Made by a program: the position numbers and the translations under genes. From a virus, in IMG/VR virus record IMGVR_UViG_3300047566_000267, positions 4,126 through 68,125 of that record: 64,000 nt of DNA. The stretch is one strand, 5' to 3'. Each line of letters begins with the position of its first letter. Positions within the stretch are counted from its first letter, which is position 1. Shown one piece after another: positions 1 to 4,383 of the stretch. Below the pieces are notes generated by a model. It saw only the letters and a program-made list of their open reading frames with translations, did not search any database and was not told where the DNA came from.

Positions 1-168
1 AGCCATAGCTACTTCACCGAAGATTTCTGCAAGCAGAGAATCAACATTGCCACCGAAAGATACGTTAGACGTTTCTACATTTATTGTTAGTGTGTTTACT
101 TTAAACTCAACACCATTGTTCTGCTTGCCTATTTTCCTTAACTTATGCTGTCGAAACCAGTCAGCCCC
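1..168 (-). ncRNA. ssrA: tmRNA (5' part; runs off the window start)
   Basis: Minus strand begins GGGGCTGACTGGTTTCGACAG at 168, a typical tmRNA 5' end. After a pseudoknot-like segment and AATAAAT, an open tag frame (78..1) reads VETSNVSFGGNVDSLLAEIFGEVAMA..., ending like an ssrA tag. Confidence 0.85.
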
Positions 169-224: not shown

Positions 225-443
225 TTACTTTTTGAGAAATTCTATTTCATCAGGTGCACCTGTGAGCTTTTTGTAAATTAATTGAGCTTTAGCTGCAGAT
301 ATAGCAGCACTATAAGCTTTGATAGAAAGATCACATACTTTGAGGTCCTTAGAATCTTCCCACTGTTTGTTAAGTGTATCCCCAACATTTGCCATTGTTT
401 TGATGACATCACTTATTACTGTTTCCTTTTTCTTTTTTTCCAT
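225..443 (-). CDS. hypothetical protein (72 aa)
   Basis: Clean ORF overlapping the end of the upstream Zn-finger ORF. Confidence 0.65.
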   Translation of the reverse strand: MEKKKKETVISDVIKTMANVGDTLNKQWEDSKDLKVCDLSIKAYSAAISAAKAQLIYKKLTGAPDEIEFLKK

Positions 444-1014
444 CTCTTTTGAGTTTTAGTTGTTTACGTTTAAGTTCTACAAGTTCTTGAGAAATATCTG
501 CATGTTTAATAGTATCATTGGTACCAACTATACATTGTTTTATATAACAAGTAGAAAGATTGGCAGTAATTTTTCTTTTATTCTCTTTTATTCTTTCTTG
601 ATTATTCTTTCTATAATTACGTGCATAACTTATACTTTTTGAAAGATAAGATTTTGATTTTTCAGGAAATCTTATTCTATAATCTTTAGAATATTTTATT
701 TTTTTATCTCTATTATTATTATAAGTTTTTTTCCTTTGTATTTTTGTTCTCACAGGATCAGCTTCTCTAAATCGTTTAGCTGTATCTGCTTTTCTTCTTT
801 TTCTTACTGGGTCTTCTTTATATTTCAAATAAGACTTTTTAGCTACTTCTTTCCGTATTTCAGGGTTTTTATTATTATATTGTTTTATTCGATTTTGATC
901 ACACTTTTTACAAACATGTTCCTTACCAAATCTACATGACCTATTTGATTTAAAGTCATTTAAACTTTTTTCTTTACCACATTTTTTACAAATTCTTGTT
1001 ATAGGTGCTTGCAT
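409..1014 (-). CDS. basic Zn-finger protein resembling the N-terminus of HNH/endonuclease VII homing endonucleases
   Basis: CKKC-x24-CKKC followed by K/R-rich helical repeats; no nuclease motif seen; ATG at 1014 preferred. Confidence 0.6.
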   Translation of the reverse strand: MQAPITRICKKCGKEKSLNDFKSNRSCRFGKEHVCKKCDQNRIKQYNNKNPEIRKEVAKKSYLKYKEDPVRKRRKADTAKRFREADPVRTKIQRKKTYNNNRDKKIKYSKDYRIRFPEKSKSYLSKSISYARNYRKNNQERIKENKRKITANLSTCYIKQCIVGTNDTIKHADISQELVELKRKQLKLKRDGKKEKGNSNK

Positions 1015-1047
1015 AAAAATATTTTTACGTGTTATAAAACAAAATGT

Positions 1048-1306
1048 CACCTACTGTGTAGGAAAATAGATAAGATCAAAATCAAAAGCAAAAACAAAGA
1101 CCTTCTCTGCTACAAAGGCAAAGTCAAAAACCAAGATTTATTCTATGGTTTTTAGTTTTGCAGAGAAGCGGTGTGTTTATCTATTTCTTTTGCTCTACCA
1201 CTGAGCCACCTTTACTAAGTAAAGGATGGGAGTCGAACCCATGACCCAAAGAACCGTTTAGATGTTATCTTATTATTTTTTTATAAAAAATCCTACACAG
1301 CAGGTG
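1048..1306 (-). ncRNA. structured ncRNA with a circularly permuted tRNA-like domain (YrlA/Y RNA-like)
   Basis: 16-bp closing stem (1048-1063/1291-1306, one G-U pair on the minus strand). T arm ATGGG-TTCGACT-CCCAT, 7-bp acceptor stem closed by a TTA loop, D arm GCTC-AGTGGTA-GAGC (1185-1253). Confidence 0.85.
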
Positions 1307-1310
1307 TGAA

Positions 1311-1346
1311 GGTATAAGGGGATCAGCTTGTGCTTACCCTTATACC
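1311..1346 (-). other. 10-bp hairpin between the 312-aa ORF and the ncRNA
   Basis: GGTATAAGGG / CCCTTATACC. Confidence 0.55.
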
Positions 1347-1358
1347 ACCATTTCATTA

Positions 1359-2297
1359 TTACTTAGTACCTTCTTCTTCTTTTTCCTTCGGCATCAACTC
1401 ATCAACCACACTCTGGAATCTCTTATCCACCTGGATACGTAACTCAGAGATTCCTTTGATTGTGGTTAACTTAGCAGCTTCAAAAACATCAATCTCTATC
1501 TTGACAGCATCCCTGTACTTTTGAAGTTCTTTAGAATGCTCATCCATGATCTTATGGTTCTCTGTATACACCTTTCCAGACTCAACAGAGTTGTCTCTGT
1601 TGATTTCTGCATTCTTTGCAGTTACCAGGTTCTTTACTTTGGCCTTGTAATAATTGACCTTCTGCTCATGTACCCGGTGGATATTAGCCAAATCCTGATG
1701 AATATTCCACAAATCCATTTCTGTATGGTGAGCAGATATTGTTACAGGATATGCTTTACCTTCATGGCCCGGAGCTACAAACCATTCTACCGGCTCTAAA
1801 AGAGGCAATTCTTTCCTCAGCTTATCTAAGGTACCACCTTTATGGATAAACTGGCCTATTACAGCTGCCATGGCCTCAGCTTCCCAGTATTCAGCCATTT
1901 CAGCTGCTGTAAGCTGATCCCAACCCCATTGGTCATTTACCAGAGGAATTTCTTTGTACTGAATAAGAGCTGCTCTTTCAGGTTCTTTGGCTACAAATTC
2001 TGTAAGCCTTAGAGTTTTGGCACCTGTGAGCAATGCATCCTTAGCTTTTATCTGCTCCATAAGGAATGCCTGGCATGCCCGGTACTCACCAATAAGTTTG
2101 AGCTGATCTTCCAAAGTAGTAGGAATTTTTACTCCCACCTGCTTGGTAATTTCATTACCACCAAAGTCTAAAGTCTTTGAGCAGTTATTGATTTTTGACA
2201 AAGCAACCATCATTTCATTGGCTGCTTGGTTGCACAAATTACTAATTGTTTGTGCCTGGGTCATTGATAGACCGTTCTTTGCGAGTGAATGTTTCAT
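1359..2297 (-). CDS. coiled-coil/helical hypothetical protein (312 aa) directly upstream of the tRNA-like ncRNA
   Basis: Long ORF with normal composition and extended helical character. Confidence 0.85.
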   Translation of the reverse strand: MKHSLAKNGLSMTQAQTISNLCNQAANEMMVALSKINNCSKTLDFGGNEITKQVGVKIPTTLEDQLKLIGEYRACQAFLMEQIKAKDALLTGAKTLRLTEFVAKEPERAALIQYKEIPLVNDQWGWDQLTAAEMAEYWEAEAMAAVIGQFIHKGGTLDKLRKELPLLEPVEWFVAPGHEGKAYPVTISAHHTEMDLWNIHQDLANIHRVHEQKVNYYKAKVKNLVTAKNAEINRDNSVESGKVYTENHKIMDEHSKELQKYRDAVKIEIDVFEAAKLTTIKGISELRIQVDKRFQSVVDELMPKEKEEEGTK

Positions 2298-2486: not shown

Positions 2487-2699
2487 TTATTTTTTTGTAA
2501 GTTCCTCTTCTTGTGGTTTCATCCCGATGTACAGACAAACAAGAAGTTGAATTGTCCATACTATCCAGCATATTGTAAGGATGCTATCCTGTGTTTCTGT
2601 AAGTTTTACCGGCAAAAATCCACTGAAGTCTACCAATAAAATGAAACTGATGGTTGATAATACAAACCACCAGTTCCAATTGTATTGACTTACTCGCAT
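2487..2699 (-). CDS. small membrane protein
   Basis: Two hydrophobic segments; overlaps neighbouring ORFs in an operon-like run. Confidence 0.5.
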   Translation of the reverse strand: MRVSQYNWNWWFVLSTISFILLVDFSGFLPVKLTETQDSILTICWIVWTIQLLVCLYIGMKPQEEELTKK

Positions 2700-3040
2700 G
2701 GGTGAAAACTCTTTAAAAAGAAGTAATGCGAAGCATTACATGCATACAGAAAAGACACAATTGGATTACCTGTGTCTTTCAATGCTTCTTTAGTAAAGTA
2801 AGAGGCAAAACACCTTGCTGCATATTTGATTCTTTTGTAACTGATCCTGAGACTAATCACATCAAAATACATAAAGTTTATTAGTGCAATGCCGGTAGTG
2901 AATAATCCACAGAAGTAAAACAAAAAATGTTTATCTATTATTATAGTAGGATTATGCACTAGGTAATAAGCATCCCAGTCAAGTATTATGACAAGTACTA
3001 AGCATAGTAGTACTATTGCATCTGTAGTTTTCTTTTTCAT
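2690..3040 (-). CDS. membrane protein, hypothetical
   Basis: Two N-terminal hydrophobic helices. Confidence 0.55.
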   Translation of the reverse strand: MKKKTTDAIVLLCLVLVIILDWDAYYLVHNPTIIIDKHFLFYFCGLFTTGIALINFMYFDVISLRISYKRIKYAARCFASYFTKEALKDTGNPIVSFLYACNASHYFFLKSFHPCE

Positions 3041-4095: not shown

Positions 4096-4383
4096 TTAAT
4101 TATTTTGTACCTGTCTTGCTGTTAAAGCTGCCATTGCTTTATCATAAGAAGCCATTAGCTCATTTACCATAAAGCCGGCAGCAAACATTTCTTTCAGGGT
4201 TATACCTGGGGTTTCTTCCATCTTTTTGAGTAGTTCTTCTATGAAGTCACCACCATTTACATAGTCATGCCCATTTACTACTTTACTAGCAGGTGCAGAG
4301 ACCATTGCTTGTATTATTGTTGCCACCATTTGGGTATACCTGGTTTTATCCATGCCAAATAATGTTTCTAAATCATGTTTCAT
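4096..4383 (-). CDS. hypothetical protein
   Basis: ATG ORF with AT-rich leader and a downstream terminator. Confidence 0.7.
   Translation of the reverse strand: MKHDLETLFGMDKTRYTQMVATIIQAMVSAPASKVVNGHDYVNGGDFIEELLKKMEETPGITLKEMFAAGFMVNELMASYDKAMAALTARQVQNN

Follow-up and report, generated by a model that had tools for sequence, protein, structure and literature searches.

A helical protein and a structured RNA with phased U-rich hexamers are co-inherited in phages and bacteria

Protein X and its downstream RNA

We examined a minus-strand locus in a stretch of viral DNA of 64,000 nucleotides (nt), positions 4,126 to 68,125 of the IMG/VR record IMGVR_UViG_3300047566_000267 (the window). Here, the open reading frame (ORF) of a protein of 312 amino acids (aa), named X, is followed by a structured noncoding RNA (ncRNA) that carries hexamers in phase. 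The order on this strand is X, a hairpin named H1, the RNA closed by stem P1, a Cys-rich endonuclease-like ORF, a 72-aa ORF, a transfer-messenger RNA (tmRNA) gene and tRNA-Gln(UUG). The source record is a 68-kb tailed phage, 53% complete, which encodes terminase, portal, major head protein and tail fibres. An earlier reading of the window (the original prediction) had proposed that X oligomerizes on the hexamers and takes the place of Ro60 as partner of the RNA. We found that X and the RNA are a co-inherited protein-RNA pair. Related loci are labeled with L-numbers (L001, L013 and so on).

Using a hidden Markov model (HMM) of the RNA family built from its 3' core, we located the core 3' of X and co-oriented with it in 76 of 80 viral loci. 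The other four loci hold only 12–241 nt of downstream sequence. The matches in viral loci collapsed to 55 distinct RNAs. Among 24 bacterial loci, the core followed X in 18 at E ≤ 0.01 and in 21 at E ≤ 0.1, and of the three loci without it, two offer less than 340 nt downstream. The bacterial X homologues carrying the RNA come from Moraxella, Capnocytophaga, Tannerella and other bacteria and are only 23–29% identical, and the hosts of the pair span Gammaproteobacteria and Bacteroidota. As had been anticipated, a conserved RNA with hexamer tracts lies downstream of the homologues, with or without the tRNA-like domain described below.

For the converse test, 75 loci were fetched by a DNA pattern alone, and 35 of them contain the RNA core by HMM. 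X lies upstream in 29 of the 30 core-bearing loci with at least 1300 nt of upstream sequence, and its C-terminus is visible in all five shorter ones. The loose pattern itself, TTTGCCTTTG-N11-14-GGTCTTTG, had given 61 of 72 matches with at least 1300 nt upstream, 34 of those 61 without X; it matched many unrelated coding regions, and the count was therefore redone with the core HMM. The one exception, L116 (809–1060, on a 41-kb contig), has a complete RNA core with its closing stem behind an unrelated 193-aa ORF. H1 is absent there.

The family of X is large. A word-indexed search returned 1368 relatives at E ≤ 1e-3, and a full HMMER scan of 1.84 billion representatives gave 1053 clusters (50% identity) at E ≤ 1e-3, of which 583 reach E ≤ 1e-30, showing how widespread the module is. 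Among the 150 matches listed, most are 280–340 aa long, some are shorter fragments and none exceeds 372 aa; complete phage genomes of about 350 kb are among the carriers of the family. Searches of 50,697 GenBank phage records gave neither a DNA nor a protein match. X belongs to no Pfam (E ≤ 1), PHROG or NCBIfam family, nor do its bacterial homologues, and a profile search against PDB sequences gave nothing below E 0.1.

The original prediction of a helical protein was supported by an AlphaFold2 model (predicted local distance difference test 85.8), which is mostly a helical bundle with one 54-residue helix and two small β-hairpins. Foldseek found no PDB match at E ≤ 0.001, the top rows being ClyA-type toxins with a template modelling score of about 0.16–0.2. 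The best Z of a VIA-align wide search was 7.3, under the noise level quoted for helical models; the ESM Atlas search gave no usable match, and the sole BFVD match was an uncharacterised X homologue. Pfam found no TROVE or vWA domain in X, and the model is not a HEAT-repeat ring. The three-copy complex prediction scored 0.03 against a mark of 0.42, which weighs neither way. Residues G9, A15, L129, A144, G148, F150, I151, H152, R161, H207, R208, N215 and I288 are invariant in the superfamily. Across the phage and bacterial branches, the invariant residues fall in three motifs (A-x3-G-[KQ]-F-I-H; L-R; H-R...N..K-A-K), a sequence pattern compatible with a phosphate- or RNA-binding site.

Table 1. 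Positions in the window of X, the elements of the RNA and the neighbouring genes
Feature	Position	Strand	Basis or remark
Gene for protein X, 312 aa, helical, no named family	2297..1359	-	ORF list
Hairpin H1, just past the X stop codon	1346-1311	-	Stem GGUAUAAGGG/CCCUUAUACC, conserved loop UAAGCACAAGCUGAUC
P1 closing stem, 5' strand	1306-1291	-	Pairs with 1063-1048 in the minimum-energy fold (16 bp)
YrlA-like tRNA-mimic module (T arm, closed acceptor-like stem, D arm), within the variable 5' domain	1180..1260	-	Rfam
Invariant ACCG, then P2 5' strand (CUUCUCUGC)	1160..1172	-	Pairs with 1110-1102
Small hairpin AAAAACCA / UGGUUUUU, loop UAGAAUAAAUCU	1126..1153	-	Minimum-energy fold
Hexamer tract 1 (CUUGGUUUUUGACUUUGCCUUUG)	1113..1135	-	5' part paired within the small hairpin
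P2 3' strand (GCAGAGAAG)	1102..1110	-	Covariation, duplex energy
Hexamer tract 2: UCUUUG + 4 x NNUUUG-type units + NCUAU, 35 nt, single-stranded	1066..1100	-	
P1 closing stem, 3' strand, then invariant AC	1046..1063	-	AC = invariant columns 93-94 of the column table
Cys-rich endonuclease VII/HNH-like ORF, directly 3' of the RNA	409..1050	-	PHROG endonuclease VII, E 1.8e-5
Phage tmRNA gene, 5' part, cut by the window edge	1..168	-	Rfam; complete in the record

Architecture of the RNA and its hexamer tracts

The hexamers lie on the minus strand as first read, namely GTTTTT GACTTT GCCTTT at 1131–1114 (tract 1) and GTCTTT GTTTTT GCTTTT GATTTT GATCTT at 1101–1072 (tract 2). Four consecutive GNYTTT units with at most one mismatch gave two overlapping matches, only at this site in 64 kb, versus 0.01 expected from shuffles; none of 100 shuffles reached two matches. 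The region 1315–1040 folds more stably than its shuffles (z = −6.06, with 0 of 200 as good). The RNA starts 53 nt past the stop codon of X, as proposed: the closing stem begins at 1306 and the ORF is 2297..1359. A hairpin does lie between them, but it is more than the mere separator it was taken for, being itself a conserved part of the element: the H1 stem covaries, and its loop sequence is retained across viral loci. H1 was not listed by the terminator scan, its stem has no following U-run, and the scan found no promoter-like site between the X stop codon and the RNA. The hairpin before the tmRNA (215–180), described earlier as similar, proved to be a terminator-like stem with a U-rich tail, and it has no loop sequence in common with H1 (1346–1311).

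From 5' to 3', the element consists of H1 with its conserved loop, the P1 5' strand, a variable 5' domain, an invariant ACCG, the P2 5' strand, an A-rich joiner, a small hairpin, the middle stem-loop, tract 1, the P2 3' strand, GUCUUUG with tract 2, NCUAU, the P1 3' strand and an invariant AC. The RNA measures 260–330 nt across the family. A consensus structure of 27 diverse sequences had 98.8% of its cells paired and compensatory changes at 16 of 19 pairs; no shuffle of 500 matched the real value, and slid controls paired 35–58%. Within this set, P2 and the middle stem GUUAG/CUAAC each showed compensatory changes at 7 of 8 pairs, and a clade of 15 sequences showed them in H1 and P1. The closing stem P1 varies freely in sequence. 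In an alignment-free test, the mean duplex energy of P1 was −19.6 kcal/mol with its own partner vs −8.4 kcal/mol with foreign partners, and the own partner outdid at least 90% of the foreign ones in 51 of 55 RNAs; the corresponding means for P2 were −14.0 and −7.5 kcal/mol.

Typical members have a middle domain of about 70–90 nt with a covarying stem where the window has its small hairpin (1126..1153), which is a reduced remnant of that domain. For the P3 region, we found two competing pairings, a long-range one between the A-rich joiner (J2/3) and the start of tract 1 and a local GAG...CUC hairpin; L001 favours the latter. The 23-mer of tract 1 is identical in eight viral contigs, two of which (those of L001 and L013) stand outside the near-identical L007–L011 group, and in L013 it is identical even though X is only 43% identical. 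In the column table of tract 1, U and G recur at 6-nt spacing. Rfam gave no match to the conserved core at E ≤ 1 for the window, for L001 or for any of 10 additional loci. The phased hexamers are a hallmark of a conserved RNA family and not a peculiarity of this phage.

Tract 2 is exactly 35 nt long in all 55 distinct viral RNAs, and its unit consensus is A-Y-U-U-U-G. Among these RNAs, A accounts for 56% of phase 1, G never appears at phase 2, and U accounts for 77% of phase 3, 96% of phase 4 and 76% of phase 5, where A makes up another 17%. Phase 6 is G in 71% and A in 28%, the two together making 99%. AA at phases 5–6 occurred in none of 200 units, versus about 9.5 expected under independence. 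Phases 1–5 (R-N-W-U-U) resemble the RNase E cleavage consensus that Chao et al. are said to have reported in 2017. Between deep branches, the number of units changes in 6-nt steps, with four in Moraxella and Capnocytophaga (counted before YCUGCG), five in phages and six in Tannerella.

Regarding pairing, tract 2 had been described as largely unpaired. This holds for the family, as the tract has no specific partner across it and is unpaired in both consensus folds, but the minimum-energy fold of the window pairs part of it with A-rich segments. Its duplex energies with own and foreign partners were the same (−10.5 vs −10.5 kcal/mol), and no covarying partner was found. Phased short repeats in single-stranded RNA, as known for oligomeric readers of the TRAP or Hfq type, are thus present in this RNA.

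Genomic context and the tRNA-like insert

The gene order at the Moraxella lacunata locus is a divergent RtcR gene, a 504-aa P-loop kinase + Rnl1-type RNA ligase, a 217-aa metallophosphoesterase, X and the RNA. Scanning 19 bacterial loci (103 ORFs), we found RNA_lig_T4_1 in nine and RtcR in seven, all within the 10 Moraxella loci. The kinase + Rnl1-type ligase gene is present in 9 of these 10, a divergent RtcR gene lies within the fetched flank in 7 of 10, and the phosphoesterase gene sits between the ligase gene and X where checked (L110). An operon with ligase and end-healing enzymes beside RtcR therefore characterizes the Moraxella homologues, but not the phage record of the window. In L110, a sigma-54-like −24/−12 element with one mismatch is located 38 nt before the ligase ORF; the sigma-54 scan of this locus as a whole was not above chance (16 matches vs 10.4 expected). 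TROVE was found in none of the five Moraxella genomes with the pair, and RtcB was encoded elsewhere in all five.

RtcR is a damaged-tRNA sensor that drives rsr-yrlBA-rtcBA in Salmonella (PMC7790460). Because the Moraxella pair ends an operon beside RtcR, X and the RNA occupy the slot of Ro60 and Y RNA. The idea that X takes the place of Ro60 thus gains independent support from its context, namely the Moraxella repair operon and the lack of TROVE in five of five host genomes and five of five large phage records, whereas X as the reader of the hexamers stays a proposal.

In M. lacunata NCTC10359 (L110, 3944–4819), an in-frame TGA splits X into ORFs of 122 and 163 aa; X is intact in the other Moraxella loci. 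The Tannerella locus encodes, upstream of X, a repair-associated ARPP-1 domain protein (PF20208; L099, 1605–2591) together with ORFs of 310, 240 and 130 aa that have no known function; the pair may there belong to a repair-like operon of a second type.

In phages, at least one tRNA gene lies within 3 kb in 33 of 54 distinct viral loci, always on the strand of X. Since the module sits within tRNA arrays, it probably belongs to the phage-host contest over tRNA cleavage. Among 140 of the 277 phage neighbour ORFs collected, the scan identified three Metallophos, two Band_7, one HAD_SAK_2 and one cREC_REC. Five large viral records with X were also inspected. Four of them encode an RNA ligase (three Rnl1-type, one RtcB), and none has TROVE, including the four that are at least 98% complete.

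Several unusual tRNA genes accompany the pair. Just upstream of X, L018 (2674–2751) and L031 (2843–2920) each encode a suppressor-type tRNA whose UUA anticodon would read UAA, a hint of stop-codon recoding in these phages. L007 (4277–4347 and 4540–4654) and L013 (4207–4295) have odd tRNA-like genes immediately 3' of the RNA. ARAGORN assigned two of them 2- or 4-base anticodons, and one Rfam tRNA match among them spans 115 nt and may contain an intron.

The variable 5' domain of the window contains a permuted tRNA-like domain. The match of Rfam YrlA (RF02553) to 1260–1162 reached 41.8 bits (E 1.1e-6), short of the gathering score of 69. The covariance-model alignment spans model positions 1–114 and includes the T loop GGUUCGACUCC and the D arm GCUCAGUGGUAGAGC; the outer stems of the model were aligned with gaps and non-standard pairs. 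L001 has the same module, with covarying stems and a YrlA score of 38.4 bits, also under the gathering score. Apart from the window, a T-arm motif inside the RNA was found in 1 of 80 viral loci, and only two of 56 distinct RNAs have the tRNA-like part. The closed acceptor-like hairpin of the mimic could not be aminoacylated.

Four aquatic RNA libraries from a single study contain contigs matching the window at 90–100%; stretches that these contigs leave uncovered carry no meaning. In three of the four libraries, contigs of relatives have 12 other letters exactly replacing 1180–1260; they also have about 70 nt at the place of window positions 1138–1149. The relatives thus have the usual middle domain without the tRNA mimic, and the window the reverse, so the variable 5' domain is a swappable cassette. 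The tRNA-like, Y-RNA-like domain is a lineage-specific accessory insert and not part of the core.

Regarding the neighbouring genes, the tmRNA is whole in the record beyond the window (L114, 3922–4293; 99.6 bits) and has an unusually long predicted tag, VETSNVSFGGNVDSLLAEIFGEVAMAA; the tRNA-Gln(UUG) gene follows directly. Contigs of close relatives part from the window sequence below position 977, inside the endonuclease-like ORF, which may therefore be a mobile homing-endonuclease insertion. This ORF is probably a neighbour outside the module. L001 has a similar ORF at the equivalent place behind its RNA. Inside coding sequence, Rfam gave a weak match to mir-2008, an animal microRNA family (2619–2702, minus strand, 26 bits, E 0.079), which is almost certainly due to chance.

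Interpretation of the pair and comparison with known systems

Taken together, we favour with moderate confidence the reading that X and the 260–330-nt RNA are one inherited two-part module, most likely a ribonucleoprotein, acting in an RNA (tRNA) damage response like Ro60-Y RNA. The RNA combines a rigid covarying scaffold (H1, P1, P2 and the middle stem) with a swappable 5' domain and two single-stranded phased U-rich tracts. We infer that X binds this RNA physically, and the hexamer ruler would be the protein-binding platform, for X or for a partner. The particle would then be a scaffold for the damage response, an analogue and not a homologue of Ro60-Y RNA. In Moraxella, it would be made together with the kinase-ligase and the phosphoesterase beside RtcR, a setting that suggests a repair role; in phages, it would ride in tRNA arrays, presumably keeping tRNAs usable during infection. 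The variable domain may recruit further factors, through a YrlA-type tRNA mimic in this window. The original interpretation thus stands in part: the linked conserved RNA, the helical protein and the Ro60-replacement context agree with it, but the tRNA-like domain is an accessory insert and not the core.

Going further, we tentatively suggest a new class of damage-response particle convergent with Ro60-Y RNA, a picture that is possible but that we would not yet expect to hold in full. Helical X would carry a surface reading the 4–6 AYUUUG units, possibly with one protomer per unit, and the swappable domain would bring tRNA-handling enzymes. Phages would use the particle to guard or repair tRNAs against host anticodon nucleases, and Moraxella would induce it via RtcR upon tRNA fragments.

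Several observations weigh against a repair ribonucleoprotein built by X. The link to RtcR is limited to one genus, and X is sporadic, being present in 6 of 121 sampled Moraxella-family genomes, an occurrence typical of a mobile accessory module. The Capnocytophaga pair stands alone amid housekeeping genes. Repair enzymes are not regular neighbours of X among the phage ORFs scanned, and neither RNA ligase nor RtcB was found in the phage record of the window, which is 53% complete. L116 is a single RNA copy without X directly upstream. X is slightly acidic (pI 5.3–6.7 in 24 of 28 members, about 6 overall), and searches of Pfam, NCBIfam and PDB sequences revealed no recognisable RNA-binding domain in it. 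The length of its helical hairpin shows no monotonic relation to the hexamer number among the few branches compared.

The acidity of X also fits a different division of labour, which we consider rather unlikely. X may bind the structured part, either H1 or the ACCG/P2/GUCUUUG junction, with the tracts left as a landing pad or decoy for another factor, such as PNPase with its S1/KH domains, or a U-preferring endoribonuclease or anticodon nuclease soaked up by the tract. The tract is indeed single-stranded and U-rich, the likeness of phases 1–5 to the reported RNase E consensus would fit a nuclease, the conserved H1 loop accompanies the X gene and is absent from L116, the copy with no X upstream, and Y RNAs tether Ro60 to PNPase (PMC4201824; bioRxiv 10.1101/312249). 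However, a sponge would tolerate copy-number variation, whereas the tract is fixed at 35 nt throughout the viral RNAs and changes by whole units only between deep branches. The hosts span Gammaproteobacteria and Bacteroidota, so any host partner on the tract would need to be universal, and X is the sole protein found co-inherited with the RNA in the loci examined. It is improbable, in our view, that the element is a cis-acting 3' untranslated region of the X mRNA (stabiliser, terminator or autoregulatory site) with no separate functional RNA. The element does begin right after the stop codon with H1, no promoter-like site lies between, and RNA-library contigs bridge the X ORF and the RNA. Against this, an element of about 300 nt that has invariant junctions, four helices with covariation and an exchangeable tRNA-mimic domain goes far beyond the needs of a stabiliser, and L116 retains the RNA without X upstream. 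Short RNA-library contigs over 1108–1179 also reach a k-mer depth of 108–378 vs 4–40 on ORF contigs; this is a weak hint of an abundant RNA, because contigs do not allow parts to be ranked, and reads from several phages may pile up on the conserved core.

Even less probable is an ordinary Y RNA (YrlA), with Ro60 encoded in the missing half of the phage genome and X a mere neighbour. The E-value of the YrlA match and the 53% completeness of the record are in line with this, and phages are known to carry Ro60 with YrlA (PMC4201824, PMC7824862). The match nonetheless stays below the gathering score with the outer stems of the model unmatched, the tRNA-like part is confined to 2 of 56 RNAs with 12 nt in its place in close relatives, and the conserved core has no Rfam match. 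TROVE is moreover missing from all four viral records that are at least 98% complete and from the five bacterial genomes with the pair; the 68-kb record, itself 53% complete, has no TROVE gene either. Hardly credible, finally, is the idea that the tracts encode a small amphipathic β-strand peptide (frame GUC UUU ...) or a tmRNA-like template. Frame 0 gives alternating hydrophobic and polar codons and is stop-free in 54 of 55 RNAs, but the latter follows trivially from U at phase 4 and G or A at phase 6. An in-frame start before an upstream stop exists in only 25 of 55, the offset between tracts 1 and 2 is 0, 1 and 2 nt modulo 3 in 22, 3 and 30 of 55, L072 has an in-frame UGA, and the stop position is not conserved. 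The coding reading was rejected on these grounds, and a tmRNA-like role is countered by the acceptor-like hairpin, which could not be charged.

Returning to the damage-response module, we compared the pair with known systems. Like TRAP on the trp leader and Hfq/Sm, tract 2 offers a triplet-like U-N-G at fixed 6-nt spacing, single-stranded and with free spacer bases. TRAP is a small β-sheet 11-mer reading (G/U)AG in an mRNA leader, whereas X is a 300-aa helical protein and the repeats here are in a stable structured ncRNA. GOLLD and ROOL are likewise phage-borne structured RNAs embedded in tRNA gene arrays. They are 600–800 nt long, and we know of no dedicated protein partner for either, whereas the RNA here is 260–330 nt and tied to one protein gene; at E ≤ 1, the Rfam models of GOLLD and ROOL matched neither the window region nor L001 nor any of 10 further loci. 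In NAR in 2016, Burroughs and Aravind reportedly counted among the scaffold-RNA pairs of RNA repair both Ro/TROVE with Y RNA and SPFH/Band-7 together with a tRNA-like RNA. The concept of a scaffold protein with a cognate ncRNA tied to repair enzymes is shared with the latter, but X is not a Band-7 protein, and Band_7 is only an occasional neighbour (2 of 140 ORFs).

Titles and abstracts from the full-text literature yielded no description of the X-RNA pair, the 2016 article by Burroughs and Aravind being outside this scope, and the pair is unmentioned in the available parts of PMC4201824, PMC7824862 and PMC7790460. Neither the RNA family nor the protein family has a name in Rfam 15, Pfam-A, PHROGs v4 or NCBIfam 20. 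The module is also a tractable system, with U at phase 4, G or A at phase 6 and a fixed unit number as a simple mutable determinant.

The resemblance is greatest to Ro60 (Rsr) and Y RNA (YrlA). As in that system, one protein is paired with an adjacent structured ncRNA, and a long stem of the 5' and 3' ends closes modular internal domains. Like rsr-yrlBA-rtcBA, the Moraxella pair lies within an RNA-repair operon beside RtcR; like YrlA, the window RNA carries a YrlA-type tRNA mimic; and like Ro60-Y RNA, the pair also occurs in phages. The differences are equally specific. Unlike Ro60, X lacks both the TROVE and the vWA domain, and its model does not form a HEAT-repeat ring. Unlike Y RNAs, the RNA has a conserved core with no Rfam match and two phased U-rich hexamer tracts, which Y RNAs lack. 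The Moraxella enzymes are an Rnl1-type ligase with kinase and phosphoesterase, and not the RtcB/RtcA of the rtcBA operon. What Ro60-Y RNA particles do in bacterial RNA repair is, to our knowledge, still unclear. If the damage-response reading is true, an unrelated pair in the same RtcR-adjacent slot would imply that the job needs a scaffold protein and a modular RNA, and not Ro60 as such. Because the protein and the RNA core belong to no named family and the Ro60 neighbour expected of a Y RNA is missing, we regard the pair as new in kind, its nearest functional analogue being Ro60-Y RNA.

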